Shown: positions 18,703 through 51,590 of the stretch, in pieces
Layout of the letters: every line of letters begins with the position of its first letter
How positions within the stretch are numbered: the stretch's first letter is position 1
DNA from: Candidatus Danuiimicrobium aquiferis
GTDB lineage: Bacteria; Omnitrophota; Omnitrophia; Omnitrophales; Danuiimicrobiaceae
Assembly: GCA_001804285.1 (NCBI GenBank)
Contig: MHFR01000048.1
Coordinates: 43,622-107,621 of the forward strand
Length of the DNA: 64,000 nt
Direction of reading: 5' to 3'
Position numbers and translations under genes: made by a program
The notes under the pieces: model-generated
The model's input: only the letters and a program-made list of their open reading frames with translations
Told to the model about the DNA's origin: nothing
The model's database searches: none

Positions 18703-18739
18703 TGTATTTCCTATTTTTAAATTGAAGGAAAATGAATAG

Positions 18740-19785: not shown

Positions 19786-19802
19786 TGGAAAACATGAACC
19801 AG

Positions 19803-19917: not shown

Positions 19918-19945
19918 TGAACTGTTCCCAACTCTATAAAAAAAT

Positions 19946-27245: not shown

Positions 27246-27320
27246 CCCCTCACCCTAACCCTCTCCCGCGGGGAGCGGGCAGGAGTGAGGGGGATCTGTT
27301 GATCACTTCAAAATCAGAAA
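27246..27320. repeat. half MITE (palindromic core + right TIR CACTTCAAAATCAG)
   Basis: CCCTCACCCTAACCCTCTCCCGCGGGGAGCGGGCAGGAGTGAGGGGGATCTGTTGATCACTTCAAAA. Confidence 0.6.
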
Positions 27321-27433
27321 TGATTACATTCATATTTCGACTGATAAAACAGAAACTTAACTTTTTAACCGCTTAGATCTCGCAAACTATTTAATTGCAA
27401 CAAGTTAGAGTAATTAAAAAGTTTAACTTAGCC

Positions 27434-27462: not shown

Positions 27463-27611
27463 TAAACATCCTACCGATAAGGAGTACAGAGTTCATTAAA
27501 TTATAGAGTTTTCGAGCCAAGGGGAAAACATTCCCGTTTCATATTTAAAGTTTTGAAAGTAGTTTAGCAAAAAATTTATCAGTTTTTTAGGAGGTAAATA
27601 ACCGCCGATCT

Positions 27612-27653: not shown

Positions 27654-30600
27654 ATGCATTTTGGGATTAAACAAAAAAACAAATCATTTAATCTAAGCGT
27701 AAAACGAGCCACTCTCTCTATTTTTTCATCCCGTTTTCTTCGTTCAATTGCCCTTGTTGTGTTGATTTGTTTTGTGACGACGAATATCACATGGGCAGAT
27801 GTGAGCGTTGGCGCATCGATCACCACCCTTCAAAATGAAATCCAATCGCTTGCCCTCAAGCCCTTTGCGATTCCCCGGGAAGCCGGACGGATCGAAGAAT
27901 TGTTTCTTCCTGACGGAATGTCCCCGGAAACACCGCTGATCGTCTATTTGCAGGATGCTCATACCAACTTGGGCGCGCAAGAGAATATCCAAAAAATTGT
28001 GCAGGAATTAGCGCCGAAACTCAAAATTGACACGGTCCTTGTCGAAGGCGGTACGGGCGAAATCGATTTGTCGGAATTGAAATCCTATCCGGATGAAAAA
28101 ATTAAAACCAACGTTACGCAGTTCTGGATGAAAGAAGCGGTTCTGAACGGAATCGAGCGCGCTGCGATATTAAGCAAAGCCAATTTCCGCCTCATTGGAA
28201 TTGAAGACAAGAATCTTTATGAAGAAGCCGGAAAGCACTTTGTAACGGCCAAGCAGGAATCGCAGGCATTTCTTGCCGAACTTGAGCCACGCTTGAAATT
28301 GATCAACGAAAAACGGAAAGCAAAATTCAATCAAGATTTGATGGTGTTCGATGATTTGACAAATATGTTCGAAAAGAAGCAGGAGCTCATGCCTCTTGTG
28401 AGCGTGATTGCCAATGAAGCCAGGAACCGCCATCTTGACCGCTGGAAATACGCGCAAGTTGAGAAGTTTATCAGTTTGATGCTGTTTGAAATTCGCGGTG
28501 GCAATCAGCAGCAACTTCTCAGAGCGAAAAAAGATTTAGACGCAAAACAATTTTTCAAAGAGCTTGAAGCTTTAAAACAAGAAGTCAAAGAATCGCTGTT
28601 TCAGAATGACGAAGAACGCGCGATTGACGCAGAGGCGCAGGGACTAAAGTTATTGCGCGATTTGGTGTCGCTCGAAGCCACGCCGGAGCAATATCAAAAT
28701 TTTCTGAAGGACCGCGAAAAGATTGAAAGATTGATTGAAAATAATTTTGGAATTCTGTCATCCCCGCATGCAGTAGGCGGGGATCCATGGATTCCCGCTT
28801 CCGCGGGAATGACAAAACCTCAAACGAATTCATCACTCGCCCTTGAATCCGCCATCGAATTTTACGAATCCGCAATTAAACGCGACGACATCTTATTTCA
28901 AAACCTGCAGGCGGCTCTATCAAAGCAATCTTCCAAACACATTTTTCTCGTCACCGGCGGATTTCATACGCCCGGCATTGTTGAAAAGTTGAAAAGCGCG
29001 AAGCTTTCGTACGTGCTCATTTCGCCGCAAGTGAGCGAAGAAGACAACGCCAGGCAATATTTAGAACGTGTCGCTGGCAAGCGCGCCGATTTGGAGGAAT
29101 TTAAATCAAAATACGGCCCTCACCCTAACCCTCTCCCTGAGGGAGAGGGCAGTCCAAATTTCTACAGGCAGTCCTCGCAGCGAAGCGGAGAGGGGAAGTT
29201 TAAGGGGACGGGTGAGGGGGAAACGTATGCCGTGCCCTCGGTCAGCCGGGCTGAAGTTGGAATCATCCGCGAATCCTTTGATTGGGCGGCAGAGCGATCT
29301 GGGGAGATCGACAATAGTCACTGGTCACCAGTCAATAGTGCCCCTTTTTCTACGAATGTCATCCCCGCAAAAGCGGGGATCCAGCGGGATTCCCGCCTCC
29401 GCGGGAATGACACAATATTCCGCTCCGAAGCGCGAAGTACGCAGAATCATGATCAGTACGATACCCCGGCCTATAGTCTTAATTCCGGTTTTGATTCAGA
29501 TGATACTGATGAAATTCAACGAATTTTGAGCGAGTTTCGCCGCATTTCCGGCATTTCTCGGAAAACGGTCCAACAATTTGCGAAGGAAGCTATTCAATCT
29601 GCAGGCAGCAAAGAGTTGCGGAGACTTCGCTTTGAATCAACGCCTCGCGAAAGATCAATATATTACTGGACTCTTTTGATTCTTGGCTGCATCACCGTCG
29701 GTTTAGGTGCCGCTTCAGCAGGTTGGGCGTGGTCCGCGGCCATCTTGCGGGATATGGGACAGAAGGATCATGTTTCATTTTGGACATCCGTTATTCCCAT
29801 GGCGATTGGGCTTGGGATTTTCATTGTCGGAGTCATTGTTTTAATTGCGCTTAACAGACCGTACCCGCTTAATGAAAAAAGTGTCTATGAACTCGCGTTG
29901 CGGTTTAAGTATCTTGATGGCGAAACATTTCGAAAACCATCCGATTCGGCAAACCTTCTCGCCCGTTCCGAAGTGCGTGGCGAAAGTGAAGCAAAAAAAC
30001 CGATTATTGATGTTCGCCGCCTTGAAGATCAGCACCATCGGCGATTTCAGGAACTCGTCGGGCTGTATCAAAAAATAAAACCCCAATCTGTAGCGGCTGA
30101 GATCAGGCTGTTTATTTTTGGCGCGATTTCTTTCATCAGTATGATAGTCGGTTTTTTTATGATGAGTAGTATCGAAAACCCCCGAGACCTTGTCACAATG
30201 ATAATGCCGTCTATCGCCATATCTCTTACGGCGCTTATGCCCACCATTTATTTTATGTGGAAAGCTAAAAAATTGGGGACACTTTTAAATAACATTCTGG
30301 GCAATTTCAGCGGCATGGAACTGACGAAAGAGGAACGCTCACAAAAACCGAAAAAATTAGAGCAGTTTTCTTTGAGATGGGGCGAGCGGTTTGATTTCGA
30401 GAGAAAACGGGGCAAACAATATCAGACGCCCAAATTGATTGAAGGCGGGCGGATGTTTGAAGAGGAAGGAGAATTTTTTTCATTGGATCAGAGGACGATC
30501 AATGATTTGGGTGTCGAATCGCTTTTGGAAAAACAGGATAGGACAAAGACAGGATTCGGACAGTCGCGGCTCGAATGGCTCATTAAACATCCGCTTCTAA

Positions 30601-33600
30601 CGCCGGGAAAAATCCGGGAACGGCAGGCGTCTATCGGTGAATTTATCCAAAATGAATCATTCCGGAAGATTATGGAAGAAAAATTTACACAATTGGGAGA
30701 AAAAATTCGAGACCGTGCCTTTTGGAGTTTTGACGTGCCGGATTTTCGCTACCGGCCGAATAAATGGATGGCGCTCGGGTTGACATTATGCAAATTTCTG
30801 CTGATTCCGGCGGGTATTTTATTGGCCGGCTATTCGTGGAAAATGCTTCCCGTTCCCTTTGTTTTGTTTTTAATGATTCGCAGCGCGTATCTGAATGAAA
30901 AAGTCATTCGAAGAGAATGGAAGGCGGTCGGAAAGTTTATCAATGAAATATTACCCGAACTTCGGCAAGCCGAATCGCCGTTACTTCAGAAAATTTACTC
31001 CGTGCTAAAGGATGCCGTCGATCCGCATGGCTCGGCCGGCATCGCTTCTTTTATCAACCGTCCCGGCATGTTGAATGGCGCGTGGGCGTATTTAAACAAA
31101 AGAAAAGAGTTACAGAGTGTCCTCGGCGCGATTGGCGAGCTTGAGAGCTTGTATTCCCAAGGGCAGGCGGCCGTTGACAATTTGGGATATCATGATTTTC
31201 CCGAAATATTGGATCGTGATACTTCCGTTTCTGGGCCAGAACAAGGCCGGCCGGTATTAAAGTTTGAAACGGAAAAATTGCATCATCCGGCCATTCCGTT
31301 TGAGAAATCCGTCGGAAATCCGGTCCGGTTCGCTTCGGATCATTCCTTTATGATTTTAACCGGCGCGAACATGGGCGGAAAATCGACCTTTCTCAAAACA
31401 TTGGCGCTTGCGATCATTCTCGCGCAAACGGGCGGGCCGATCCGCGGGTTCAACATGAAACTGACACCGGTCAAACTCATGACGCTTTTTGATGTCAGAG
31501 ATGACATTGCGGCAGGAAAGTCCAAATATGACGCACAGACAGACCGGCTCAAAGAAATGACTGATTTAGCGGCGTCAGATCCGAGAGTGATGTTATTTTT
31601 TGATGAAATGTTAAACGGAACCAACCCGGAAGATCATCTTGTGATCGAAGAAGGCACGATCCTCTACTTGGTGAAGCTCGGGATTTTCGGCATGTTAGCC
31701 ACGCATGATTTGGAAGTGACGGAACTCGAAACAGTCGAAAAGCAACCCGGCGTTTTCAATATGCATTTTGACGAAAAATTGGATGCCGACAGGAAGCCGC
31801 AAGCGGATTATGAGTTAAGCCAGGGACCCGTTGAAGGTTCAAACGCGATTTCCATTCTTGAAAGAAAAGGATATCCTCCGGAAATTATTGACGAAGCCAA
31901 ACGCCGCGCTCTGGTGAGACTGGAGAAAAAAGCAAAAGGGCAAGCACGGGCCGAAGTGCGCCACCTTGAAAATAGTGGCAAGGCGATTATTAATCGAGGC
32001 GCACGAGAGTCCTCGATACTTTCCAAGGGGCTTGTATCGAGGGCCGAAGTTCGTAACCTTGAGAATACAGAAGTCAGAAGTCAGAAGTCAGATATGTCAT
32101 TCCCGCAGGCTTCTGGCGGGAATCTGCGTTTGCTCGCCAGAGGCGAATTTGTCTTTGGCAGAGATTCCCGACAACAGATTTCGGGAATGACACCAGAATA
32201 TCGTTCCGAAGCCCGTGCGGATTCGGATTCCGACACGCCGGCTTATGTGTTGGATCCCGGTTTCGATCCAGAACAATATCCAGACGAAGTTCATACAATT
32301 CAACGAGCATTAACTAAAATTCGCCAAATCACAAACAAAAGCCAGGCAGAAGTTCAAACGGAAGCGAATAAACATATTCGCTTTAGCAATAATTATCCAT
32401 ACGCGCTATTGTGGCATAGCGAACCGGGATTATTTAACTTTGCCAGGGCAAAATGGAAATTTTTTCTGCTTGCCGGATTATGCCTCGCTTGTTTGCCATC
32501 TGCTGTGGCAATGTTTATATATTGGATTGCTCGACCTTTCAGTACCATACAGGAAGGAAGTGAATTTCATCACTCAAAATTCATTTTGTATTTTGGGCTT
32601 TTTCTTACTTTTGCGGGATATTATTTTTTACAAACATTTTTTGCTGCGCTGCCCGTGACGGAAGCGAATGTTTTCGCCATTTTTCGCGGAATCGATTTCA
32701 TCACGAAAGATGAATATCGGGATTTGACGTTAACTCTAAAGTCGTCGAACCCTTCTGCTGAAACTAGGGCTGAAGCGCGCGCGGAACCTGATTATGACAC
32801 GCCGGGATATAATTTAAGGCCGGGATTCGATGGCGACCAAATCAATACGCTTCAAGGCGCGTTAACCACAGTTCGGAAAGTAACGAAAAAGAGCAAGGAC
32901 GAAGTTCAGCGGGCCGCGAACAAATATCTCTGGCCATATCGCTTCCGTTTTTTCTCTTACTATGATGAAACGGGATTGTTCGACATCGCTCGTTTTAGAA
33001 ATCCGCCGGGAAAGATTCCCAATTATCTGCGTGCCTTTTTGAGTCCATCCGGACTTTTTTCCTTATTAGCCGCTTTGATTTTTGCGCTTGTTTTTGCCAT
33101 TCCTGTTGCTTTAGCGCAACGCTCTTTTATGAGAATGGTCCATGATGTCATGACAACGCTTACTTTCCCGCTCGGAATACAAATAGATGACGCGGCCGAA
33201 AGATTGCCTGCCTATACGCGCATGATTACCAATCCCTATTGGTGGGGAATTGTCTTTTTTATGGCCAATATATGGGCGGCAGCAACAGTGCTGAAATTGT
33301 TACGGGTCACGGAAGCGAACATTTATACCATTTTGTACCGTGTCGGATTCCTCACGAAAGACGAATATGAAGATTTGCTGAAAACTCTGGAATCGTCGCA
33401 ACCTCTTGGTCAAGAAACGCTTTCCGGGTCACGTTCTGCGGACAAACGGAAAATCGGGAGAAGGTCGCCCATTGAAGCGGCTTCCAATTATCTTTTGATG
33501 GGATTCGCCGAAGCGCGGCATCTTGCGCGCCTCCACCAACAAGCCATGCGCCTATCCGCTGCCGGGAGATATGTGCCCGCAAGAAACTTGCGTTTAAAAA

Positions 33601-45600: not shown

Positions 45601-48600
45601 ATATTCTCACGGCTGCTTATGAAAATGTGGCAACAGAATATATTAAAATCGGGGATCGCGACAGTTTGCAAAAAGCCAGAACGCTTTTGGATTTTGTCTT
45701 CTATGGATTACTTAATCAATATCCTTTAAAGGATTCAGTTGCCCGCGTGGCCGGTCGTTATAATCAGCTCGTCGGTATTTTATATCACAGAGATTTAAGA
45801 GATGCAGGGGATGCGTTAAAGAAAGAAATCAGTTTGCTTAGGCAATATCGGGTGGCATCGCGGGTACCCGAACAGGCAAAATATGTGTTTGGAACAACCT
45901 TGAAATTAATTCGGGCATACTGGGGAGAATCGCCGTCGACATGGGGTCTTCGCACTTATCAAAATAGACACGAAGGAGCGATGCGTAGGCGTGACGATGC
46001 GATCGAATGGATGAAAATAGCGGAAACATTAACGGGAGATCCCGAATTTAGGGCTCATATGACGGATGCGCAAATCCGGGATTTTGAAAAAATGAAAACA
46101 TATTATGGCGGTTTGCAAGGGGAGTTCAGCTGGATCACAAATGGTGACTATGGCACTCCCGGACATATGATGCTGGAATTCCGGGGTGCAATGCATCATC
46201 AGGATATTCAAGCGATTCAGCGGCGTTCACCTTTAGTGTTAAAGCATATTGAGTATTGCAGGAATAATAGAACAAACAGGAGATTACAGCCCCAAGAGCG
46301 GCTGATCATGCGCGAAATTCGTTCGTTTGAGAAACGGCATGAGTGGGATGATGTTAACCGTTCAGAAGACGAAACGCGGAGGTCGGAAGCGCGCGAGGAA
46401 TCTGCCGAGAAACGCGAACTTCCCGAAGAAATACAAGCGGCGGTTGAATTAATTCGTCAGGCAATGGAATCATTCCAAGCCGGAACAAAAGAACGGGAGC
46501 GAATGAAATGGGCTTATCAGTATTTTACGGAATTATTTCAAAAAGGAAAACTCCGGATTGAAATTATCGAAGGCTATGAGACATTTGCAAGTAAAGGCAG
46601 TACGGATCATGACCCAATGGTGATCAAGGTCGGGGCGCAAAATCTCGCAAGCCCCGAAATTACGGCGCGGGCGCTTATTGTTGGATTTTATTTGCTGTAT
46701 TTAAAGCCGGAAAATAAAACGGAACCGGTCTTTAAAAAGACGGTAATTGGAAAAGCAAAGTGGTTAACGGAAAAGACGGATTTTCATTTTCCTAAAACGC
46801 CGGCAGAAAAAAGCGAAGAAGGGGCGTTGCGGGCAATTGGGCCTCAAACGGTAAAAGAGTTGGGTGAACTTAAAGATCATTTGGCGTCGATCCGGTCGGA
46901 GTCCGCAAAAGAAGCGGCGCGTGATGCAAGGAATGTTCAAGTTGATCCTGTGATGGTTCAGGCCTTGCAACAGTTTGCGAATGAGAGCAAAGGCAATCTT
47001 ACGGAGGCGTGGCGGCTTTATGCCGAAATTCTGAATGAACATCTTGAACACCGGCAATCGGAAAAACTGGTTCAGTTTTTGACGCAATTTTTAAATACGT
47101 TTTTAATTGTGGTTGCCAAAAGGAGTACATTCCAGGACCTATTCTTAGAAGTCCCCGAATCATTTGCTGAAACGCTCATTGATTATTTTAATTCTCCCGC
47201 GCCGGGGCAGGGAGGGATTGATGATTACCGTGCATTACTTCTGGAATCAATTCGGTCCATTAATCCGGACGCATTGGACCGTTTCATCGGTAACAAAGCG
47301 CTTTTGTTTGGGATTGCAAAGATGATTGAATCGGCCGAGGTCAGTGTGAAAATTGCCCGCGGAAAAATATCATCGTCCCGGATTTCGGCAACTGCGGCCG
47401 CAGGCCGGCAAACATTAAGAGAATTAGCGGCCCAAGCGGGCGGAAATTTACTCCCGTTACTCGAAGGGGCGAGAGTGATTACGGATACAGGTCGTTTGCT
47501 TCCAGGTCCGGAACCGAGTGGTGCCGGTGCTGATGGTGTGCTGGCTCCGGGGACTGTCCGGCCCGTAAAAGATCATCTTCCCGTAAACGCGGAATATAAG
47601 GGTTTTCAGGCAGCGCTTCGAAATGCGCTTAAAGCGGCTTTAAAGAAAAAACCAATTCCGTCGTTTGTTGAATTTGCAGAACGCGAAGTCCCAAGGCTCC
47701 TTGAAAATATGCATCACGCATTTGAGCAAAGAGAGAACAAGATTCGCGGAGGGCTGGACGAGCTTTCTGAGTGGCTGAAATTCTTGCATAATCAGGTTGC
47801 GGGTGGCGGCCCCCTGAATGGGGATTGGGCAACTTTTATTTCTAAAACCGAGGGAGCAGAATTTCAAGGGGCCGGAAAAGATTTGGGAAAAGAAAAATTA
47901 TCCGAACTTTATACCGTTATTTTCCTTGCGCAAACGATTTATGCCTATTTGCATGCCGGCCGGTATCAAACGACTGCTGCCGATGCTCGCAATGAAATTA
48001 ATAATCGTTTAAAAGCGCTGGCTGAGAGCGAAGGGCCTCCTGTTTTTAGCGCGGTTCAGCAGTGGTTTACGCGTTTTGAGCATGACGTTCAAACGGCCGA
48101 AACGCAAGCGGCAACACAGGCATCGATTATTCAAGCAAGACGGGACGATTATGAAGCGCGGACAACCAAAGTGCGAAGGCCGAAAGAAGGGGCAGGGGCG
48201 GCGGCTCACGTGGAATCAAACGCTATTCCGGTGGCGGAAGAACCGCAGGCCATTGCTCAGGAGCCGACGTTTAAAGGATTTCAGCAACGGTTGGTCCATG
48301 CGAAACTGAATGCGACGATATTAAATGCGGACCGCGAAAAAGCAATGGCGACTTTGGTTTTCTTGGTTGCGGGTGAGGAGAAAAAAGGGCTTGAAGCCAT
48401 GCCGGCATATCTGGCAAGGACAAAAGACAATTATGACAAGGGACGGAGAACTTTGTTGATGCAGCTTCACCCGGATCGGTTAAGAAGAAAACCTACGGCG
48501 GTAGAACAGAAAATATATCAATTTTTTGATCAATACAAAGATTTTCCGGGAACCGGACAAGGATTTAAAACGGGCGGGGATTTCGGGACGCAGTTGGTTG

Positions 48601-49532
48601 ACATTCAGAAATTGTTGACGGACGAAGAAGCTGCAGCAAAAGACGTAGCGGCCACCCGGGAGCGGGAACTGGCGGAAAAAATGGCGGGCCTTCCGGACCG
48701 GGTTGCGGCGCTTGAAGTTTTAGCGAAGAAAATAGAGGCTCAAGTGGCACAGTTTGGATCGCAGATTGAGACTTTCGGAAAATACGTGGCTCAAGCAACG
48801 GACATGCTTCAGCGCATGGAAGCGATGCAAACAAAGTTAGATCAATCGCAAAAACGGCGGGCAGAGGTGAGAACGGACATTCCGGTGGAAATCCATTCCG
48901 CTACGCGTTCTACGATGTCGGCTAATGTTGCGCAACAGCCCAAACGCATGATTGTGATGCTTGATTCGCTTAAATCCCCGGAATTTCGGAAAACATTTAT
49001 CCAGATGTTGGAGCAGACGAAAGCGGATCGATCGCTCGAGGTTGCGGTGGTGGCGTCATATGAAAATGAACTTTTAATTGAGCCGTATATTTTTGATTGG
49101 TTCGGGGATGCGAAATTTTTTACGAAGTATCAACAAGTCCAGCTTTATTCCGTGAACCGGTTGCTTCAGGGGCAAGATTCTCAGATTTCTCCGGAACGGA
49201 TGCGTCAGATGTTCGGCGTTCAAATGGAGGACAGCCGTTTCATCAGCCAGTTGATTGATCAAAAGAAGAAAGAGGCTCAAGCAAATGCGTTATCAACGCG
49301 CGTGGTTGTCATTGGAAACGCACAAATTTTCGAAAAAATTAAACGGCGTGATACGCCAAAACTTCTTGATGCGCCGGAGGCTTTAAAAGCAGCGCTGTTG
49401 TTATTTGATCTCGACGGTGCGATTGACTGGGTGAAAATGGCTCCTCAAGGTTATATTGATCCGACAACGACGATGATGCAGTCGCTTGAGAGTGCGATCG
49501 CCGGACAGATAAGGATCGGGACGGCAGCGTAA
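27654..49532 (+). CDS. giant (7,292 aa) membrane-anchored multi-domain protein: TraB/GumN-like domain, TM bundles, MutS core+ATPase, GDH-like NAD-binding domain, HEAT/TPR-like repeats; multiple in-frame repeat-element insertions
   Basis: Uninterrupted 21,879-nt ORF; chance ORFs of this length do not occur at this GC. N-terminal signal anchor (IALVVLICFVTT). MutS Walker A TGANMGGKST, Walker B LFFDEMLNGT and ATHD. Several TM clusters. Terminator-like repeat directly after the stop. Confidence 0.8.
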   Translation: MHFGIKQKNKSFNLSVKRATLSIFSSRFLRSIALVVLICFVTTNITWADVSVGASITTLQNEIQSLALKPFAIPREAGRIEELFLPDGMSPETPLIVYLQDAHTNLGAQENIQKIVQELAPKLKIDTVLVEGGTGEIDLSELKSYPDEKIKTNVTQFWMKEAVLNGIERAAILSKANFRLIGIEDKNLYEEAGKHFVTAKQESQAFLAELEPRLKLINEKRKAKFNQDLMVFDDLTNMFEKKQELMPLVSVIANEARNRHLDRWKYAQVEKFISLMLFEIRGGNQQQLLRAKKDLDAKQFFKELEALKQEVKESLFQNDEERAIDAEAQGLKLLRDLVSLEATPEQYQNFLKDREKIERLIENNFGILSSPHAVGGDPWIPASAGMTKPQTNSSLALESAIEFYESAIKRDDILFQNLQAALSKQSSKHIFLVTGGFHTPGIVEKLKSAKLSYVLISPQVSEEDNARQYLERVAGKRADLEEFKSKYGPHPNPLPEGEGSPNFYRQSSQRSGEGKFKGTGEGETYAVPSVSRAEVGIIRESFDWAAERSGEIDNSHWSPVNSAPFSTNVIPAKAGIQRDSRLRGNDTIFRSEARSTQNHDQYDTPAYSLNSGFDSDDTDEIQRILSEFRRISGISRKTVQQFAKEAIQSAGSKELRRLRFESTPRERSIYYWTLLILGCITVGLGAASAGWAWSAAILRDMGQKDHVSFWTSVIPMAIGLGIFIVGVIVLIALNRPYPLNEKSVYELALRFKYLDGETFRKPSDSANLLARSEVRGESEAKKPIIDVRRLEDQHHRRFQELVGLYQKIKPQSVAAEIRLFIFGAISFISMIVGFFMMSSIENPRDLVTMIMPSIAISLTALMPTIYFMWKAKKLGTLLNNILGNFSGMELTKEERSQKPKKLEQFSLRWGERFDFERKRGKQYQTPKLIEGGRMFEEEGEFFSLDQRTINDLGVESLLEKQDRTKTGFGQSRLEWLIKHPLLTPGKIRERQASIGEFIQNESFRKIMEEKFTQLGEKIRDRAFWSFDVPDFRYRPNKWMALGLTLCKFLLIPAGILLAGYSWKMLPVPFVLFLMIRSAYLNEKVIRREWKAVGKFINEILPELRQAESPLLQKIYSVLKDAVDPHGSAGIASFINRPGMLNGAWAYLNKRKELQSVLGAIGELESLYSQGQAAVDNLGYHDFPEILDRDTSVSGPEQGRPVLKFETEKLHHPAIPFEKSVGNPVRFASDHSFMILTGANMGGKSTFLKTLALAIILAQTGGPIRGFNMKLTPVKLMTLFDVRDDIAAGKSKYDAQTDRLKEMTDLAASDPRVMLFFDEMLNGTNPEDHLVIEEGTILYLVKLGIFGMLATHDLEVTELETVEKQPGVFNMHFDEKLDADRKPQADYELSQGPVEGSNAISILERKGYPPEIIDEAKRRALVRLEKKAKGQARAEVRHLENSGKAIINRGARESSILSKGLVSRAEVRNLENTEVRSQKSDMSFPQASGGNLRLLARGEFVFGRDSRQQISGMTPEYRSEARADSDSDTPAYVLDPGFDPEQYPDEVHTIQRALTKIRQITNKSQAEVQTEANKHIRFSNNYPYALLWHSEPGLFNFARAKWKFFLLAGLCLACLPSAVAMFIYWIARPFSTIQEGSEFHHSKFILYFGLFLTFAGYYFLQTFFAALPVTEANVFAIFRGIDFITKDEYRDLTLTLKSSNPSAETRAEARAEPDYDTPGYNLRPGFDGDQINTLQGALTTVRKVTKKSKDEVQRAANKYLWPYRFRFFSYYDETGLFDIARFRNPPGKIPNYLRAFLSPSGLFSLLAALIFALVFAIPVALAQRSFMRMVHDVMTTLTFPLGIQIDDAAERLPAYTRMITNPYWWGIVFFMANIWAAATVLKLLRVTEANIYTILYRVGFLTKDEYEDLLKTLESSQPLGQETLSGSRSADKRKIGRRSPIEAASNYLLMGFAEARHLARLHQQAMRLSAAGRYVPARNLRLKTMIWRGIVIKGGKWIDIFQLVKEFMRGWFDIFDLPKKLINQQSIQFLSYEYLGERYHREMFLDSEEGNALYGLLDEMKNDPKRFPGIDWSKHSAIYGHWEVSSYRYERSEVRNLAPEKGTGISLKSERLPVPFSVLTYAPVLSAAKSAARSETRAGAEKDPIGLRKIEQIARGYKDIRRSRRMIYPNIILDRWQLPPAFEPYQDAVLNRRAPEFEAGMGVALIVPGEDIKAALRKKKEPEERVQALIRLIETMVIKGIMKAWHARVLKFGLKDEKNQWSEKALNKPEILQVVLQELSGEKLEILKQCVDIWFKRIREGPEGRLGSGLVLIQKDAELLYDYLRNVHAPHQNLTGYHNIAGSIVESIFRGDIAAKVHSLDEYVKQSWAMELTDALHTLETPANASIAEAAVERVTQIAEQSKNNRIITLAGSLEDALADEERKNKLIARIKTILIDEKLKVLDFAFSRLEEAEKRLHEMEEFQREHRHMFTMQTDYYAFADIAEGYTRRVEEMFGQTPKDYSGRRMKMLMKNFEEMEFRNLGRSQRQGGGLPFTTGLQVAKLLWARERKPVRVLRAFNRLINKQELLEAVKGVKTRSNGTARPEEAKSPKAYVEFLGEHRMSAIALELVYYGIGEVAQQLREDLGTHAQDVLAYLNKMEMPAFQGEGEWKEKLHKQTAAILKALRDIEGIFEKDDAEKDISKKLSINKRASIVFEHAARLHQEMDPSWFPNDRTIDLLLLYWTNTFKVGGADRIHEALGSILENDLFYDFEDGKRKQKSPDEILKLLDTNRALSQLATFERRQLKSVLFELGLINPEDVYPAMFKYVMEKIGTAKPRMVVFYDRHLPLENSSPIIERIVKSGKYSSDDIIFVPWPEYTTPLGETVAIADGLMDLMRQMANPERGKQVLPVKKYSVRDQQWFGEFVIREIAGKIFEPEEQTALFQQQQRIGTKSWGDIGPMLKSRLGSLVMKPLLAEAEKRIKAIHRPATQETGEGDEETRRYERALWDRSGAVTRETKRLIEKFYGMLNDVMNRIDIGKQAGIEDVEFPPSEEQFIYALFLYMMKKSYPDMLFVSVHRDVIIKKSEDIQWTLEELQQGFRLVTTDKAKEIHQGLEIPQLSWRKRSRQAHIHLAVEQLVSARRVNAEVPIVFVELKQDAQKIESVPQETLAKAILGLYALSLSNFASYFTIRDVVPSRSGVLGDPYRIADYLLRPEPETEAQIEQGAKALGENYFDRVLTKMKGQARAEARSDLKRRSFAEVLWNYLWMPKEAIQLAKLHAEARKLAHAGKFDQARELRIKIFIWREVVLEKDRWLGPDQFREAMFGDSSIDSLFMNFVQHKMHHDAPTHSDQIETVVDLLWEVESDHVHFPGFRVIVDVRKGPQGVACRYDEKKRSEARNGEVAKEIPEELDFYIKEFLSILPENKRPNIKKFKAANQVIRTNLNDPVRIKYKLPVTIVFRPEFFIRGLPPDLQPRGMPWQLVYTNHDLADEAFESLLVIHGNKEIEEVNLSQGPVDYFISSSEKAYRHKRRSILSFTPLEGRTMDDVNQGTSYLDGAFSAIVAKPIKSKGELTEKQLQKKTDEQKRKIIELWTKSLVNIGILGQVYIASTGNLMQAEEMDLIIQYAYDMESLEEAEQRQMARGQPSGAVDYQPVFGRRDLPPAVGVSDVNLGIPKKKWKIQGIGPVNAILALIKHPVIQKKYFGGQEPPQVNVGFFGFGRVAAQMASVVIYDYANITPIQFSGIIDEARQIYSKWGELPVPVLQELIRRVNQRADSPLQKLARRFRRYGVRELSSNSVQQKVLSENIDVLVLASPPQTFGEKEAERFEGKIVIEANQNVATKKAIQILNQRGIKFVPYSTVNIGESYAARHEFANPFMKAPRYDKEFYVLNGIVGHTFANIWMGLESFEKNRLNQWKTLILWIVSAALIGTASGWLGGILLSIPLIGISVGFSLGTIAGLIAAYIFEPQAAKSMVQTVGELNERMNREIDALVVEMYHLTPELHDFKQDEQNKTQLRAICNRLLSRIKEKKLSAEQKRQYYRILGKIYLLMSQKGRNETYMPYVVALKIAVFQEVNAVIISKSYDLKKLKEHLRYPQKSDAIQKRVAAFVIGQARHEPKDIPEIVEALGDQLIKSDDYHVRAECAKALGLIRHSKGKSYLFMSFFSTKETDSSVKEWVEWALARYNVNWEANAEAYYEKELLPIQRRIEQFERITDLRKSTQPRPAFWEQIKEGLQSFQSLYRKAGQTYFEYAQMKRMEGDDETALKHYKEAINLLGKAGWEGNAFPFIVQQEIAEIYWTLNQPAKMREALLKMILPGAAFELVKGKEIKEQRNIQDFLMPIEIYQRLAFERFFIWNGFKPETAEVMAAALNHYIERKYNELIHDFGYVGKMDEVDAREQLIRKDIEILEEINKKIIPKLYIEDEKAGKIPFLKLMILVTTNMYYQRFPKLMQWIVQTLSEEKIPPEIQKPTNPEAKFLQDLFVEIGLIQGSNEGAAGGRSEIRSKGEEYLNRHALINEFGTFKRANLEKEFMPFLNQLKSQDSVLIERGFENIKQHLNAELKRAKQLSRQDEAKRVRSFVAGRLVAMIPRMKERYIPNVVELYEILLGSMTYSVSRYLGSGVARDPETQIRIRLLKILQKGSETGTRPNIAISILKSETFAGSRGLLKTEPEKEYLKIVDQTILKRIAKAFRAGDARQRLSLLQDLLEGVRASKGFAIEVSNQSLSSLLVGVLGRFRFSVEESIIMNEIKKTVENQAASPLIRQVRRAMVFGMLNPPVYQNLDDIYFYDSDRAIYHAAILLEHGLIPLIHLPVFASGIQDKNDLHKEQKYSEQIFSGIKRLRKENPKALLAVGGIKNFQAAMRAVENGVNVLFVSKSLSSRQIKKLKWYAEKIHPENPDILVLSGVERGKKMTRGLNRQTGGGFLALDKPEEAAVNEDEIQRLKRLQEKRPQNVFGFYWLFLNRAVEEAMKTPADFIVVDAEFSLGTQAEITAQWLENLKNETIQQRIRQRRLDKRTVSGKPEGRAEVRNLESNSNRLSTGTNESTFKLPKRSLKRAEARSPIADLAKKGQVANMFSEEDPSVVYLAAKKMKDAAGTVLAHRMSAIDKDLVGPVFGLVIETDEGQSFLIQRLAEGTFDENIQTREWIAVHTVQETRAGPETDDQSWTIISEQPQYLTTPEAIQNIRLGEHVQIAYQQKTEKNQAAIILTAPNSTDRRKLTIYSVEILPEGIQAVDSTADDAEAIDPYLYDFQDQEPGSAVVEERAPKRTVPDFSDTLAPKAKKAPRSFASAKKRIFRALKRIPFLFFVFLIGGSVVLSYFYIHSLETETMRGVTYQHLPFVASQIEWKDLTRERYLSNNPNSTVDDVLTSELAEPIRMLAQYNQQRWLQIYRIEIANAKVPVSQPAQTGNNFRVGATPVSNETKPALQIGVFHDRTLGEPNPPFPQETIVSLDPLDRKALHQFKVAVYGKPAAQYNLDFARQQKDAITYWTYFYLFAGVIIFAAGLVSEFVFRKSRIIRRENIRADRRERNAREFRQAEGHSGRTEGGERGRAEVRAAKNVFRLKVVVVPGLSRYREIEGHQVFTKPLADMTDEMRRKLNEWFKPFMGEGFYQFVTTTGMPDFIFLTKVQIVSGNVIKQTLEDESGAEPAEADQSYQLITFIPLTPFAVQQTGLFKTLVREYMKQANIKEPIYFLRSHVYRTTTPEVNIEQKEESREITITRSGHSSLVIEEMGRAEGRNLAPEKGTGILLKREQLPVPFSGKSELRHIENSSEFSVPSFRLGRMDQLETQFRAEARNEIAAELNPGLEAVFIRAPKNVLAGIVKELYPTDDARRTGFLNLIQNPEADHDRWLPVGHRLLLGWWREAPYAGTMVLTFDLRKLNAAQIREFKRKREGKHALEGDFWLYINRVIRRITGQSIELGGVESDDKTLSPEELLLRLKILEPTWTSGNIDALIHVGNFFRAKGDLGRAEFFLRKAAELLPENEDSFWRDQQAKKIINILTAAYENVATEYIKIGDRDSLQKARTLLDFVFYGLLNQYPLKDSVARVAGRYNQLVGILYHRDLRDAGDALKKEISLLRQYRVASRVPEQAKYVFGTTLKLIRAYWGESPSTWGLRTYQNRHEGAMRRRDDAIEWMKIAETLTGDPEFRAHMTDAQIRDFEKMKTYYGGLQGEFSWITNGDYGTPGHMMLEFRGAMHHQDIQAIQRRSPLVLKHIEYCRNNRTNRRLQPQERLIMREIRSFEKRHEWDDVNRSEDETRRSEAREESAEKRELPEEIQAAVELIRQAMESFQAGTKERERMKWAYQYFTELFQKGKLRIEIIEGYETFASKGSTDHDPMVIKVGAQNLASPEITARALIVGFYLLYLKPENKTEPVFKKTVIGKAKWLTEKTDFHFPKTPAEKSEEGALRAIGPQTVKELGELKDHLASIRSESAKEAARDARNVQVDPVMVQALQQFANESKGNLTEAWRLYAEILNEHLEHRQSEKLVQFLTQFLNTFLIVVAKRSTFQDLFLEVPESFAETLIDYFNSPAPGQGGIDDYRALLLESIRSINPDALDRFIGNKALLFGIAKMIESAEVSVKIARGKISSSRISATAAAGRQTLRELAAQAGGNLLPLLEGARVITDTGRLLPGPEPSGAGADGVLAPGTVRPVKDHLPVNAEYKGFQAALRNALKAALKKKPIPSFVEFAEREVPRLLENMHHAFEQRENKIRGGLDELSEWLKFLHNQVAGGGPLNGDWATFISKTEGAEFQGAGKDLGKEKLSELYTVIFLAQTIYAYLHAGRYQTTAADARNEINNRLKALAESEGPPVFSAVQQWFTRFEHDVQTAETQAATQASIIQARRDDYEARTTKVRRPKEGAGAAAHVESNAIPVAEEPQAIAQEPTFKGFQQRLVHAKLNATILNADREKAMATLVFLVAGEEKKGLEAMPAYLARTKDNYDKGRRTLLMQLHPDRLRRKPTAVEQKIYQFFDQYKDFPGTGQGFKTGGDFGTQLVDIQKLLTDEEAAAKDVAATRERELAEKMAGLPDRVAALEVLAKKIEAQVAQFGSQIETFGKYVAQATDMLQRMEAMQTKLDQSQKRRAEVRTDIPVEIHSATRSTMSANVAQQPKRMIVMLDSLKSPEFRKTFIQMLEQTKADRSLEVAVVASYENELLIEPYIFDWFGDAKFFTKYQQVQLYSVNRLLQGQDSQISPERMRQMFGVQMEDSRFISQLIDQKKKEAQANALSTRVVVIGNAQIFEKIKRRDTPKLLDAPEALKAALLLFDLDGAIDWVKMAPQGYIDPTTTMMQSLESAIAGQIRIGTAA
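27744..29063 (+). other. TraB/GumN/TIKI-like domain within giant protein (approximate bounds)
   Basis: C-terminal family motif HIFLVTGGFHTPGIVEKLKSAKLSYVLI (cf. FVAVGAGHL.G..G....L...GY.V). N-terminal PLIVYLQDAHTNLG. A MITE (28757-28814) sits inside. Confidence 0.4.
28757..28814. repeat. double-hairpin MITE core inside giant ORF, in frame (SSPHAVGGDPWIPASAGMT)
   Basis: GTCATCCCCGCATGCAGTAGGCGGGGATCCATGGATTCCCGCTTCCGCGGGAATGACA. Confidence 0.75.
29117..29221. repeat. palindromic-core repeat inside giant ORF, in frame (HPNPLPEGEGS...GTGEGE), with internal insertion
   Basis: CCCTCACCCTAACCCTCTCCCTGAGGGAGAGGGCAG ...(59 nt)... GGGTGAGGGGG. Confidence 0.7.
29316..29340. repeat. short repeat AGTCACTGGTCACCAGTCAATAGTG in giant ORF (SHWSPVNS)
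   Basis: Related to the intergenic repeat at 55761-55832 (GGTCACTGGACACCAGACACCAG...CTGGTGACTAGTGAC). Confidence 0.45.
29358..29412. repeat. double-hairpin MITE core inside giant ORF, in frame (VIPAKAGIQRDSRLRGND)
   Basis: GTCATCCCCGCAAAAGCGGGGATCCAGCGGGATTCCCGCCTCCGCGGGAATGACA. Confidence 0.75.
30472..31925 (+). other. MutS domain III (core/lever) + domain V (ABC-type ATPase) segment of giant protein, with TM hairpin in place of clamp domain IV
   Basis: LDQRTINDLGV...TKTGFGQSRLEWLIKHPLL...IRERQASIGEF matches MutS domain III. HPAIPFEK...ILTGANMGGKSTFLKTLALAIILAQTGGPI...LFDVRDDIAAGKS...MLFFDEMLNGTNPED...MLATHDLEVTEL...VFNMHFDE matches MutS domain V motif by motif. Confidence 0.8.
32097..32192. 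repeat. double-hairpin MITE variant inside giant ORF, in frame (MSFPQASGGNLRLLARGEFVFGRDSRQQISGMT)
   Basis: GTCATTCCCGCAGGCTTCTGGCGGGAATC...GATTCCCGACAACAGATTTCGGGAATGACA. Confidence 0.7.
33950..33999 (+). repeat. terminator-like hairpin (family D) inside giant ORF, in frame (EKGTGISLKSERLPVPFS)
   Basis: AAAAGGGGACAGGCA-N19-TGCCTGTCCCCTTTTCTGTTTTG. Preceded by the RSEVRNLAP motif. Confidence 0.7.
38590..39230 (+). other. Glu/Leu/Phe/Val-dehydrogenase-like NAD(P)-binding domain (degenerate) within giant protein
   Basis: KIQGIGPVNAIL...VGFFGFGRVAAQMA (GxGxxG/A) and DVLVLAS...KIVIEANQNVATKKAIQILNQRGIKFVPYSTVNIGESY. Compare the GDH signature KIVVEAANGPTT.EA..IL..RGI.VPD...N.GGV..SYFEW. Confidence 0.5.
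44830..44880 (+). repeat. second terminator-like hairpin (family D) inside giant ORF, in frame (EKGTGILLKREQLPVPFSG)
   Basis: AAAAGGGAACAGGCA-N20-TGCCTGTCCCCTTTTCC. Preceded by RAEGRNLAP. Confidence 0.7.
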
Positions 49533-50614: not shown

Positions 50615-50635
50615 GAGTTGAATGACAAATCAAAT

Positions 50636-50726
50636 GTATCTGTTTAGCGTTTTGAGGTTGACTATCGCCCCTCACCCTAACCCTCTCCCTCGGGGAGAGG
50701 GCAGGGGTGAGGGGACGCATTTGTTA
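50636..50726. mobile_element. MITE, TIR framework with palindromic core, between convergent genes
   Basis: GTATCTGTTTAGCGTTTTGAGGTTGAC...CCCCTCACCCTAACCCTCTCCCTCGGGGAGAGGGCAGGGGTGAGGGG... Confidence 0.7.
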
Positions 50727-51172: not shown

Positions 51173-51329
51173 TTGTCATATTTTATAGGACGAAAGCAAT
51201 TAAAAATCAAATCGTTCCACTATTTTTCTAAATTTTTAATTCCTTGCCATGTCTGACGAACGCTGTGATATTTGTTTATCGGCTGACGGGTCGGGAAACT
51301 GAATGCGGGGTGGGAGGTAATGCTGCCTT

Positions 51330-51590
51330 GTCATTCCCGCATGCTTCCCTCGGCAAAGCGAAGGCCAACCCTGTATTTCCAGGGTAGGCGGGAATCTGTT
51401 AAGCATGGATCCCCGACACCCAAGAAAAACTGGGGCCGGCCCTTTCTTTTCCAAGGGAAGCTTTCGGGGATCAAATTCGCGCGTTCAACTTTACATTTTG
51501 TCATTCCCGCATGCCTTAGGCGGGAATCGATGTTCATAGATCCCCGACAAAAGCTTTCGGGGATTAAATTCGCACATCGACTTACGTTCC
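51330..51590. repeat. two tandem copies of a ~125-165-bp double-hairpin MITE (51330-51495; 51500-51590)
   Basis: Each copy: GTCATTCCCGCATGC...GGCGGGAATC...GATCCCCGACA...TTTCGGGGAT(C/T)AAATTCGC. Confidence 0.7.

Follow-up and report, generated by a model that had tools for sequence, protein, structure and literature searches.

A giant Omnitrophota protein with a TIKI-like head domain and cargo units punctuated by a short R-[AS]-E-x-R motif: a possible cellular polyprotein

General features of the giant gene

The 64-kb stretch of DNA analysed here (hereafter the window) carries a single open reading frame of 21,879 nt on the + strand (27654..49532), the strand to which all parts of the gene listed below belong. 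The ORF starts with an ATG, is comprised of 7292 codons plus a stop codon with zero internal stops, and displays a G+C content of 0.43-0.48 along its length. The exact 7292-aa product has been deposited as OGW79760.1 and OGW96844.1 from two Omnitrophica MAGs obtained from different Rifle samples, and was seen on seven contigs, the longest of 245 kb. A fragment from a third MAG covers aa 4851-7292 with one mismatch, and a fragment from an SRA run covers aa 1-1358 with nine mismatches. The copies in two MAGs and these concordant fragments argue against a chimeric assembly, a risk that the initial annotation of the locus had raised. The identical deposited protein is assigned to Omnitrophica bacterium RIFCSPLOWO2_12_FULL_44_17, which places the gene in an uncultured groundwater (Rifle aquifer) bacterium of the Omnitrophota. 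Scans of the window for tRNAs and Rfam families were empty, and promoter-like or terminator-like sites are not enriched inside the ORF, which therefore gives no sign of internal transcription units.

The protein begins with a hydrophobic helix (aa 23-41; 27720..27776), preceded by a K/R-rich start and followed by 'TWA|DV', which is kept in homologues of its head domain (S1, see below) and corresponds to a signal peptide or signal anchor. It ends in '...GTAA', and this C-terminus ('...TAA-COOH'; 49521..49529) fits the [AS][AV] signature that emerged from the statistics of S1-family proteins. Only four Pfam families were found above threshold. The MutS_III and MutS_V matches have an E-value of 2e-22, while ELFV_dehydrog (25.8 bits, gathering cutoff 23.4) and HEAT_2 (29.2 bits, gathering cutoff 27.7) lie just above their cutoffs. 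At least 13 hydrophobic TM candidates are grouped in 7-8 clusters. These results bear out the initial annotation in its description of one intact 21.9-kb frame combining a signal anchor, TM clusters, a MutS core with ATPase, a GDH-like domain and a HEAT-like solenoid, and also in its statement that the protein is not a repetitive adhesin, as internal repeats are limited to a three-copy TM-hairpin module, a two-copy module and a 38-aa repeat-derived stretch.

The S1 head domain

The TIKI/TraB-PrgY-GumN/EreA/ChaN hydrolase superfamily includes site-specific endopeptidases, and counts among its members the Wnt protease TIKI, the Ras/Rap1 endopeptidase RRSP and erythromycin esterases. Homologue alignment and a structure model assign a fold of this type to S1 (aa 32-487; 27747..29114), the end of which coincides with the end of a 475-aa homologue. 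The model (pLDDT 83) displays an alpha/beta fold with a parallel beta-sheet core, as in the superfamily, and places H103, E131, E303, R410 and H438, which are invariant among the 46 homologues aligned, after strands. By residue type, this conserved His/Glu/Arg set fits the published signature of TIKI-family enzymes, '2His/2Glu + basic residue' (PMC6254334). S1 differs from superfamily members by a large helical insertion (model helices 142-380), and a Pfam search of the giant protein at E <= 0.1 returned no family of the clan (e.g. TraB_PrgY_gumN). The TraB/GumN-like domain proposed by the initial annotation thus stands at the level of the modelled fold, but not at that of Pfam. As the superfamily also holds esterases and non-enzymes, the fold does not prove protease activity of S1. 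Relatives of S1 come almost exclusively from Omnitrophota MAGs, and in a rough NJ tree the S1 of the giant falls outside the main RSExR clade.

A short motif punctuates the protein

S1 is followed by a degraded copy of the motif R-[AS]-E-x-R at aa 532, an intact copy at aa 590, and 17 more. The 18 intact copies compare with 0.14 expected, and the other five frames of the 64-kb window contain none. In order, sites 1 to 18 are RSEAR at aa 590 (29421..29435), RSEVR at aa 771 (29964..29978), RAEVR at aa 1432 (31947..31961), RAEVR at aa 1463 (32040..32054), RSEAR at aa 1517 (32202..32216), RAEAR at aa 1705 (32766..32780), RSEVR at aa 2090 (33921..33935), RSETR at aa 2132 (34047..34061), RAEAR at aa 3226 (37329..37343), RSEAR at aa 3375 (37776..37790), RSEIR at aa 4481 (41094..41108), RAEVR at aa 5007 (42672..42686), RAEAR at aa 5038 (42765..42779, a 31-aa spacer separating sites 12 and 13), RAEVR at aa 5534 (44253..44267), RAEGR at aa 5717 (44802..44816), RAEAR at aa 5775 (44976..44990), RSEAR at aa 6243 (46380..46394) and RAEVR at aa 7069 (48858..48872). 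This motif, the most informative feature of the protein, was absent from the initial annotation.

Sequences that relax the motif at a single position occur at background level, and no halo of decayed copies surrounds it. In the window gene, the wobble positions of motif codons 1, 4 and 5 vary almost at random, and both CGN and AGR triplets serve for Arg; from this codon diversity it follows that the motif is selected at the protein level. Two signals at the DNA level are left unexplained: the wobble position of codon 2 is a C at 14 of the 18 sites of the window gene, and across species the first Arg prefers CGY (79%, against a background of 41%).

Units located between motif sites

Unit M1 (aa 590-770; 29421..29963), a 'DTPAY..GFD' module with a TM hairpin, is an orphan present in three copies in the giant. 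Copy 2 is unit M2 (aa 1517-1704; 32202..32765), while copy 3 (M3) shares the unit aa 1705-2089 (32766..33920) with the first copy (aa 1926-2068) of the two-copy module, whose second copy forms the unit aa 3226-3374 (37329..37775). A profile of the three-copy module found no match in 1.84 billion representatives nor in GTDB genomes. The orphan unit aa 2132-3225 (34047..37328; 1094 aa) is without Pfam, NCBIfam or PDB match, and a search of 5.8 billion clustered proteins with aa 2140-3225 returned no homologue at E <= 1e-5. The unit aa 3375-4480 (37776..41093) comprises a GDH-like NAD(P)-binding domain (38736-39230), a predicted TM pair (39348-39491) and HEAT repeats (39888-40145). It is followed by the unit aa 4481-5006 (41094..42671), annotation-free in domain searches, and, beyond the spacer, by the unit aa 5038-5533 (42765..44252) with predicted TM helices at aa 5281-5299 and 5472-5490. 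All TM helices after S1 come in pairs with K/R-rich flanks. Beyond S1, the window protein has no similarity to 60 large ORFs of 79 related loci.

The best characterized unit (aa 771-1431; 29964..31946) is a complete membrane MutS-related protein comprised of two TM helices, MutS_III (30516-30695), two further TM helices and a MutS_V ATPase (31350-31907). It aligns end to end with stand-alone membrane MutS-related proteins of about 600 aa (E = 4.5e-30 with P0005), and its resemblance to P0005 and P0008 (Sedimentibacter) extends over their full length, including both TM hairpins, with the Walker A/B, D-E and H-loop residues kept and the ATPase motifs intact. Unlike these proteins, with which it shares only 21-25% identity, the unit is embedded in a chain of 7292 aa. 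Compared with the repair proteins MutS1 and MutS2, only MutS_III and MutS_V are found: the unit has no mismatch-binding domain I, connector II or clamp IV of MutS1, the clamp region being replaced by a TM hairpin, and no C-terminal Smr endonuclease of MutS2. Its NCBIfam scores of 85-103 bits are to be set against cutoffs of 400-640.

Hairpin repeats inside the reading frame

Dispersed palindromic repeats that also occur between genes are found in frame in the ORF, as about 9-10 hairpin modules at six sites. The initial annotation, which had counted at least nine insertions, was right on their presence, and read them only as evidence of selection. These GC-rich repeats sit mostly at linkers. 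Two of them (families D3/D8) are inserted in S1 (aa 365-391; 28746..28826), where a clean gap in the 40%-identical homologue P0058 proves the insertion, and where the structure model has a low-confidence loop (pLDDT < 50). The linker after S1 (aa 488-589; 29115..29420; 'PHPNPLPEGEGS...', 'IPAKAGIQRDSRLRGND') is assigned to repeat families and contains the degraded motif copy, RAEVG. Spacer peptides derived from repeats lie between sites 3, 4 and 5 (aa 1432-1516; 31947..32201; hairpins at 32095-32124 and 32162-32193, fold z = -2.1), between sites 7 and 8 ('NLAPEKGTGISLKSERLPVPFS', family D5; 33921..34046; fold z = -4.2), and between sites 15 and 16, where family D5 occurs a second time (44802..44975).

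In-frame insertion into genes is also seen with Rickettsia palindromic elements and comparable repeats. As with these elements, the window repeats are short dispersed palindromes translated within an ORF that they do not break, one of them forming a surface loop of a folded domain; unlike these elements, most window insertions are located at unit boundaries, beside or between copies of a protein-level motif.

S1-headed giants in other Omnitrophota

The search for relatives of the giant returned S1-headed, motif-bearing giant ORFs from 16 other Omnitrophota species, but a divergent full-length orthologue was not obtained, and a metagenome scan with aa 590-2140 gave no match. The family is defined here by a signal peptide followed by S1, the motif R-S-E-x-R after S1 and at unit boundaries, and a C-terminal [AS][AV]. 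The ORFs of the 16 species contain 3-14 motif copies each, with Ser at position 2 in 116 of 135 instances, and the first copy directly follows S1, lying at aa 527-817 overall and at aa 527-695 in 15 of these species. Motif density is 1.10 per 1000 aa in the S1-headed giants versus 0.046 in ordinary ORFs of the same loci. At locus L007, the Leu at motif position 4 is encoded by all six Leu codons over seven sites, and orthologous small units retain the motif while its variable residue differs.

In these other giants, PGI (486/486 profile positions), glycogen synthase, GDH, PPDK, URO-D, HAD and HEAT lie wholly between adjacent motif sites, with margins of 8-75 aa between enzyme and motif. The linkers are rich in small residues upstream and in acidic residues downstream of the motif. 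Cargo is wholly different among giants with the same head and motif, and the domains are therefore interchangeable passengers rather than co-adapted parts. A sister clade of S1-headed giants has [GA]ARL[AS] (GARLA) in place of R-S-E-x-R; its first copy is likewise located right after S1, and it brackets a complete MurB. At five further loci with S1-headed giants (L020, L021, L035, L040 and L068) no punctuation motif was detectable. Considering the window protein together with its relatives, we conclude that the motif very probably marks the boundaries between units.

A stand-alone S1 paralogue is divergently adjacent to the giant gene in 16/16 of the other motif-bearing loci; in the window none adjoins it, and the upstream genes encode a HAD hydrolase and an FG-GAP/dockerin protein. 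At L006, a Y1 transposase gene adjoins the S1 gene. This locus was rejected as proof of a separate small S1 gene: an RSELR-bearing +1 frame continues from inside the end of the gene, which may therefore represent the fused state in frameshifted or overlapping form. The giant ORF of L007 is split by a hairpin insert with an RSELR copy on either side. A model in which cargo was inserted between a pre-existing head and tail was likewise discarded, since the last unit of the giant has no similarity to the C-terminal extension of the stand-alone S1 paralogues, with which it has only the terminal dipeptide in common.

Proposed organization and alternative explanations

Overall, we consider it probable that the giant is a polyprotein-like array behind an S1 head. 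The chain would start with a Sec-type signal peptide and the S1 head of about 450 aa, with the fold of the TIKI/TraB/EreA/ChaN superfamily and a conserved His/Glu/Arg set that resembles its signature. About 13 cargo units of 150-1100 aa would follow, with R-[S/A]-E-x-R between them; every unit would be a protein or set of domains complete in itself, and TM hairpins would anchor several of them. The family-typical Ala-Ala would close the chain. The motif may be a proteolytic processing site, in which case the product would be released as separate proteins. Short repeat-derived stretches that lie between two copies of the motif would then be lost as spacer peptides, and this would account for the tolerance of hairpin-repeat insertions at these positions. 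By a weaker line of reasoning, the cutting would be done by the S1 head or by a secreted S1 paralogue, which we regard as a conceivable but rather doubtful candidate protease. The signal peptide puts S1 outside the cytoplasm, whereas the cytoplasm is the expected location of the MutS ATPase and Rossmann units, so S1 may not reach most of the motif sites. Since the motif ends in Arg, tryptic data cannot reveal cleavage at it.

The giant might instead remain uncut, as a membrane-anchored multi-enzyme scaffold. The motif would then have a structural or docking role in the linkers, acting as a hinge, forming a salt-bridged cap, or offering a partner such as S1 a place to bind. The composition of the linkers and the HEAT and TPR scaffolding in the giant would suit such a role, and published work treats giants mainly as single surface-associated proteins (bioRxiv 10.1101/2023.11.21.568195; PMC10066038). 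However, the strict Arg-x-Glu-x-Arg spacing, the missing halo of decay and the GARLA swap at the same positions resemble the recognition site of an enzyme, the units are whole stand-alone proteins, and translated hairpin-repeat spacer peptides are tolerated nowhere but between or beside copies of the motif, which makes the uncut scaffold unlikely, even if it keeps the most weight after the polyprotein-like array. A motif devoid of protein function is much less probable. It would be the translated terminus or target of REP/MITE-like hairpin elements, surviving in the ORF only in the stop-free orientation and frame, and the ORF would be a recent fusion of neighbouring genes. Intergenic elements of the window do terminate in TTTAGCGTTCTGAAGTTG, a sequence that agrees with the motif DNA CGTTCCGAAGTT at 11 of 12 positions, direct motif copies bracket the repeat inserts of the window, and the codon-level biases, the transposase gene at L006 and the split ORF at L007 all point the same way. 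Against this, 37 of the 42 short inter-motif segments tested in the 16 other species are not hairpin DNA (mean z = -0.5), synonymous variation at the conserved motif is free in these species, down to the use of all six Leu codons, orthologous small units keep the motif through changes of its variable residue, intergenic termini never encode the fifth-position Arg, and the sister clade has a different motif at the same positions. As a general explanation, a translated MITE-like terminus was therefore rejected, and we regard it as largely refuted.

The initial annotation had suggested a membrane-tethered, nucleotide-driven machine of a new family, in which MutS ATPase, Rossmann domain and solenoids would cooperate. 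An ATPase with intact Walker A/B motifs, a GDH-like domain, HEAT repeats and many TM helices do share one frame, but the MutS part reproduces in full a protein that stands alone elsewhere, the chain consists of self-contained units split by a conserved motif, related giants with the same head and motif carry entirely different cargo, and the class of giant Omnitrophota ORFs had already been described; a concerted machine is thus highly improbable. Still more remote is an assembly chimera, or a decaying pseudogene kept open by luck, as might be feared for mostly orphan sequence with dispersed repeats in a short-read metagenome assembly: the identical product in two MAGs and the concordant third-MAG and SRA fragments speak against it, 7292 stop-free codons are impossible by chance, and the family-typical head and tail are both present with the motif intact 18 times. 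Our results agree with the initial annotation, which had considered the frame to be under selection, and we take the 21.9-kb frame to be, with near certainty, a real gene of the S1-headed, motif-bearing family.

Returning to the polyprotein-like array, we tentatively propose for the family as a whole that S1-headed giants are true cellular polyproteins, i.e. secreted strings of complete enzymes and membrane modules. The protease that cuts them, at R-S-E-x-R or at G-A-R-L-A depending on the clade, would be TIKI-like and would be either their first domain or a secreted paralogue. If so, ultra-small host-dependent bacteria would deliver or co-produce entire sets of enzymes by an expression strategy akin to that of MARTX toxins or viruses, the cleavage map that is missing for the largest known proteins would be at hand, and cleavage, once confirmed, would make these giants one of the few cellular examples of polyprotein expression. 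The head, the boundary motif (in at least 17 species) and the C-terminal dipeptide together provide a rule for cutting giants into units in silico, and yield a biochemical hypothesis that names both a site and a candidate protease. They also suggest how such genes grow, with whole-protein cassettes being added at motif-marked junctions that tolerate mobile hairpin repeats as well.

Comparison with known giants and polyproteins

To our knowledge, the longest predicted proteins, of up to about 147,000 aa, are found in the Omnitrophota. [quoted passage not shown] West-Roberts et al. suspected that such giants are cleaved, and stated that the cleavage points are unknown (bioRxiv 10.1101/2023.11.21.568195). 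According to published work, structural and functional analysis is held back by the missing cleavage-site information. With 21,879 nt, at least 13 predicted TM helices and four Pfam families in an Omnitrophota genome, the window gene falls in the class of Seymour et al. 2023 (over 20 kb; PMC10066038). Like the giants of that class, the Archaeovorins and the 'multi-enzyme metabolic cluster' class (Nielsen & Lui 2026), it is Omnitrophota-encoded and combines an N-terminal signal region, many TM helices, HEAT repeats (HEAT_2 in the window protein, as in the Archaeovorins), unrelated enzyme domains and poor conservation. Its 7292 aa lie below the Archaeovorin size class (over 90 kb / at least 30,000 aa) and, more generally, below the thresholds of at least 10-30 kaa used for Omnitrophota giants. 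The Archaeovorin signature (glycosyltransferases, methyltransferases, glycosyl hydrolases, peptidases, SAM methylases, NUDIX, SecA_DEAD, N-terminal C39 or S8) has no match in the window protein at E <= 0.1, whereas several items of the Archaeovorin cargo list (GT5, GT1, PPDK, PGI, S8 and HAD) do occur in related giants that have the same head and motif. No mention of the S1 head, of punctuation by R-S-E-x-R or of the C-terminal Ala-Ala is made in the Archaeovorin, Nielsen & Lui or Seymour papers. The giant belongs to a previously undescribed sub-family of Omnitrophota giant proteins, the internal grammar of which appears undescribed as well.

In MARTX toxins and viral polyproteins, a protease within the chain cuts at a short recognition motif and so sets the functional units free. 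The giant differs from both in that its candidate protease is TIKI-like instead of a cysteine or 3C-type enzyme, that its cleavage is inferred only, that its units include TM hairpins and housekeeping-type enzymes, and that there is no sequence homology. Its likeness to them (general knowledge; PMC6254334) lies in self-contained units on one chain, short boundary sequences, a protease-like domain on the same chain and secretion signals. With self-contained units delimited by a conserved short motif, the giant is organized as would be expected of a polyprotein processed at such a motif.

Reality and genomic context of the giant reading frame

The reading frame at 27654..49532 (+) starts with ATG, comprises 7292 codons without internal stops and has a G+C content of 43-48%. 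An exact look-up retrieved two deposited proteins, OGW79760.1 and OGW96844.1, whose 7292-aa sequence is identical to the window protein, and which stem from the Rifle aquifer Omnitrophica MAGs RIFCSPLOWO2_12_FULL_44_17 and RIFCSPHIGHO2_02_FULL_45_28. The protein is present on seven contigs (the longest of 245 kb); aa 4851-7292 occur in a third MAG with one mismatch, an SRA-derived fragment covers aa 1-1358 with nine mismatches, and on ENA scaffold_344 (93.8 kb), where the window was placed via a neighbouring housekeeping gene, the gene caller likewise gives a 7292-residue product. The flanking genes are ordinary chromosomal ones: a split transketolase, futalosine-pathway menaquinone synthesis, ETF/acyl-CoA dehydrogenase and c-di-GMP signalling. 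Given these concordant copies and ordinary flanks, the giant ORF is a real and reproducible gene, and the intact frame described in the initial annotation is confirmed.

Upstream of the gene, an AGGAGG is located at 27589-27594, and a 12-codon ORF (ATG 27612 .. TAA 27650; MFISFGNMAVKR) ends 3 nt before the giant's ATG, an arrangement that could serve translational coupling or leader-peptide control. Elsewhere in the window, a perfect 26-nt direct repeat (AATTCTCTGCAGAATGTAATCCGCCG; 13113-13138 and 14260-14285) flanks exactly one gene, the PD40/beta-propeller ORF 13176-14222 (-), and might mark a cassette boundary or stem from a recent duplication. A second direct repeat, of 62 nt and 73% identity (7130-7191 and 7409-7470), takes in the 3' end of ORF 6494-7192 and recurs downstream of it; it may be the relic of a duplicated gene end.

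Modular composition of the window protein

The giant protein is modular: behind a conserved hydrolase-fold head, self-contained units follow one another, with a conserved protein-level motif, R-[AS]-E-x-R, between them. The motif sites, named here by the position of their first Arg, define 19 segments. Pfam, NCBIfam and PDB sequence searches detected MutS_III and MutS_V at aa 955-1418 (E = 2e-22), MutS domains I, II and IV being absent from this region, together with marginal matches to the ELFV_dehydrog NAD-binding domain (aa 3695-3859) and to HEAT repeats (aa 4079-4164); no further domain was found by these searches. A hydrophobicity scan showed an N-terminal helix at aa 23-41, followed by TM helices in pairs, and the only internal repeats are a ~190-aa 'DTPAY + TM hairpin' module, present three times, and two elements present twice, a ~140-aa module and a repeat-derived stretch of 38 aa. 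The unit at aa 771-1431 aligns end to end with stand-alone 'MutS-related proteins' of ~600 aa, in the order two N-terminal TM helices, MutS_III, two TM helices replacing the clamp, and the MutS_V ATPase; the stand-alone proteins begin ~10 residues past RSEVR-771 and end ~20 residues short of RAEVR-1432.

The first segment contains the head domain S1 (aa 32-487), which is 40% identical over its whole length to the 475-aa P0058, the closest full-length homologue found in the protein search; the similarity ends precisely at the start of a repeat-derived linker in the window protein. Modelled with AlphaFold from 12 sequences, S1 reached a mean pLDDT of 83 and a pTM of 0.77. Invariant in 46 S1 domains are H103, E131, E303, R410, G435-G436, H438, P458 and Y469, of which H103, E131 and H438 are placed right after beta-strands in the model. 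The TIKI superfamily, which includes esterases (Ere) as well as site-specific endopeptidases (TIKI, RRSP), has a parallel beta-sheet core, a 2His/2Glu catalytic set and a conserved basic residue (RRSP structure paper, PMC6254334). The 'TraB/GumN-like' domain proposed from the sequence alone is thus correct at the level of the fold, but no Pfam family of the TraB/TIKI clan matches S1.

The boundary motif is a property of the protein

R-[AS]-E-[AVIGT]-R occurs 18 times in the giant's translation, versus 0.14 copies expected from composition, and none of the remaining five frames contains it anywhere in the 64-kb window. Since all one-position relaxations of the motif are at background frequency in the giant, decayed versions form no halo around it. 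At codons 1, 4 and 5 the wobble base is near random, with Arg encoded by both CGN and AGR; a remaining DNA-level bias concerns codon 2, whose wobble base is C in 14 of the 18 sites (background ~0.22).

Scanning GTDB genomes with an S1 alignment yielded 233 S1 relatives, nearly all from Omnitrophota, and 79 loci were fetched from these. In 16 species (loci L013-L015, L024-L026, L029, L030, L037, L046, L047, L049, L051, L054, L060 and L065), a stand-alone S1 paralogue of 700-790 aa with a signal peptide and a C-terminal K-[AS]-[AV] is the divergent neighbour of a giant ORF; no S1 paralogue adjoins the window's giant gene, and its last unit bears no similarity to the C-terminal extension of these paralogues. 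In 13 of these loci the partner giant exceeds 3100 aa and continues beyond the fetched stretch; in the other three it measures 2103-2934 aa. Each giant begins with its own S1 domain and contains R-[SA]-E-x-R between 3 and 14 times; the first copy lies, as in the window protein, directly after S1 (aa 527-817; 15 of 16 within 527-695). Ser occupies position 2 in 116 of the 135 R.E.R instances, position 4 is L, V, T, M, A, S or I with species-specific preferences, and the flanks show small residues before and acidic or small residues after the motif. Motif density per 1000 aa is 2.5 in the window protein and 1.10 in the S1-headed giants, versus 0.046 in ordinary ORFs of the same loci.

Codon choice varies likewise: in L007, all six Leu codons are found among the seven sites with Leu at position 4, and across species the motif Ser wobble and all Arg5 codons match background usage. 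Arg1 is CGY in 79% of cases (background 41%) and AGR in 2% (background 26%). Such codon-level biases, in the window giant and across the 16 species, stand out in a motif that otherwise behaves as a protein-level feature.

The cargo of the window giant is unique. In six other giants, each Pfam domain lies wholly between neighbouring motif sites, and complete enzymes are closely flanked by them: phosphoglucose isomerase between sites 2106 and 2681 (486/486 profile positions, E = 1.5e-222), glycogen synthase (GT5 + GT1) between 2524 and 3054, URO-D between 1799 and 2192, a complete glutamate dehydrogenase between 2127 and 2945, HEAT between 3046 and 3154, and a HAD hydrolase between 1863 and 2154, while PPDK_N + PEP-utilizers end 18-22 residues short of the next site. 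From domain coverage and site counts, we estimate the probability that no motif site would fall inside any listed domain by chance at roughly 5e-5. A ~80-aa unit, 'VIVWxVNARKIGVxIDGKNFFATxRGEL...', is a motif-bracketed cassette in giants of several species (L024, aa 2028-2106; L046, 1433-1511; L060, 2065-2148), which is evidence that small cassettes serve as conserved building blocks alongside the large enzymes.

In a sister clade of S1-headed giants, R-S-E-x-R is missing and [GA]ARL[AS] takes its place, with 10 copies in L073 and L077 versus 0.04-0.13 expected, and further copies in L067, L083, L086 and L032. The first copy directly follows S1 (aa 530-590) in five of these six loci and is at aa 1104 in L083; in L077, a complete MurB is bracketed by this second motif. 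The two motif types fall in different clades of a rough NJ tree of 46 S1 heads, where the window S1 forms a separate branch with L080, and some S1-headed giants have no detectable punctuation motif.

Of the S1-family proteins with available C-termini, 33 of 63 end in AA, SA or SV, including nearly all those of at least 700 aa and giants of 1800-2600 aa, whereas among the remaining ORFs of these loci 7 of 575 end in AA. This dipeptide may be a sorting, PDZ-protease or degradation signal. The window giant ends in ...GTAA (49521-49529 (+)); a family-typical head and a family-typical tail on one frame support a single complete gene.

Hairpin repeats inside and outside the giant gene

GC-rich palindromic repeats of the intergenic DNA are also found in frame within the giant, as ~9-10 hairpin modules at six places. 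The repeat pair at aa 365-391 corresponds to a clean gap in P0058 and to the sole low-confidence internal loop of the S1 model; the pair is therefore an in-frame insertion that is tolerated in a surface loop. The remaining in-ORF repeats are situated at unit boundaries and flanked by direct motif copies (532/590, the former degraded; 1432/1463/1517; 2090/2132; 5007/5038; 5717/5775), and three of the five segments between these copies fold clearly more stably than random gene pieces (z down to -4.2). The intergenic REP/MITE-like elements (18595-18704, 19798-19919, 19007-19111, 10544-10648 (reverse), 27246-27322, 50635-50714, 7306-7348 and 51329-51569) are GC-rich hairpins of the GGATTCCCGC..GCGGGAATGACA and CCCTCACCC..GGGAGAGGG types with flanking termini TTTAGCGTTCTGAAGTTG / CACTTCAAAAYGCTAAA.

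The motif might accordingly be regarded as a mere footprint of hairpin elements, devoid of a protein role, as the intergenic copies terminate in TTTAGCGTTCTGAAGTTG, which resembles motif DNA: in one frame, their left terminus reads stop-R-S-E-V, and 11 of 12 positions agree with the ORF motif DNA. This likeness may reflect a target site, a capture event or chance. However, 37 of 42 short inter-motif segments tested in other species are not hairpin DNA (mean z = -0.5), and some of these segments are orthologous small units in which the motif is retained while its variable residue changes. The motif is thus a protein-level feature of a gene family, on which the hairpin repeats at the window linkers are a lineage-specific overlay.

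Several loci show repeats close to S1 or at junctions. A 'P-L-P-x-G-E-G / GGGED'-type stretch, which is a translated CCCTCACCC..GGGAGAGGG hairpin repeat, follows S1 at the same position in the window (29115-29230), in L008 (Omnitrophica RIFCSPLOWO2_01_FULL_50_24) and in L007, the S1 identity of the other two lineages to the window being 44% and 25%; it is either a recurrent insertion at one site or a conserved RNA/linker feature. In L007 (= L013; 3300-3480, minus strand), ORFs of 2082 and 4922 aa overlap by 34 nt, with the order RSELR, stop-carrying hairpin insert, RSELR in the next frame; they are probably a single ~7000-aa S1-headed giant, split by repeat insertion or sequencing error. In L006 (1338-1856 and 3152-4358), a Y1 transposase gene (IS200/RAYT-type, PF01797) is located immediately upstream of the P0058 gene, whose stop is overlapped in the +1 frame by an RSELR-coding palindrome (CGCTCTGAACTCAGAGCG); as this frame continues without a stop into the next ORFs, a single frameshift may be all that keeps the 'separate' genes from being fused.

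Proposed processing and comparison with known giant proteins

In the reading that we propose, and to which we give slightly less than an even chance, the motif would be a processing site. Taken as such, it would make the giant product a polyprotein; hairpin repeats translated as spacer peptides between two motif copies would just be set free, which would account for their being tolerated. More tentatively, we infer that the protease would be S1 itself or a secreted S1 paralogue. The main weakness of this mechanism is a topology conflict: the signal peptide predicts an extracytoplasmic S1, whereas the TM helices, paired and flanked by K/R-rich stretches, together with the ATPase and Rossmann units, suggest that most of the giant lies in the cytoplasm. 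The same topology paradox was met by West-Roberts et al. A speculative way out, if all cargo were exported, would be delivery into or onto a host cell, by analogy with MARTX effector arrays.

Seymour et al. (PMC10066038) report that giant ORFs of more than 20 kb are common throughout the Omnitrophota classes; these ORFs show little conservation and few annotated domains, and their roles are unknown. The initial annotation, borne out as to the ORF, is therefore partly supported in its interpretation, its view that no described protein family has this architecture being overstated. The 'Archaeovorins' of West-Roberts et al. combine many TM helices, HEAT, GT5/GT1, PPDK and PGI with N-terminal C39 or S8 peptidases; their cleavage is suspected, with cleavage points stated as unknown. 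In the work of Nielsen & Lui, one class is termed 'multi-enzyme metabolic cluster', and the majority of long proteins are noted to be sequence singletons. These three papers make no mention of MutS, of a boundary motif or of a TIKI-like head, and our literature search found no paper joining Omnitrophota and polyprotein. The boundary motif, together with the head and tail signatures, renders the question of whether and where such giants are cleaved directly testable. With the class published, and the motif and head absent from those texts, the window giant belongs, as a small representative, to an already known kind of gene; its internal organisation appears new.
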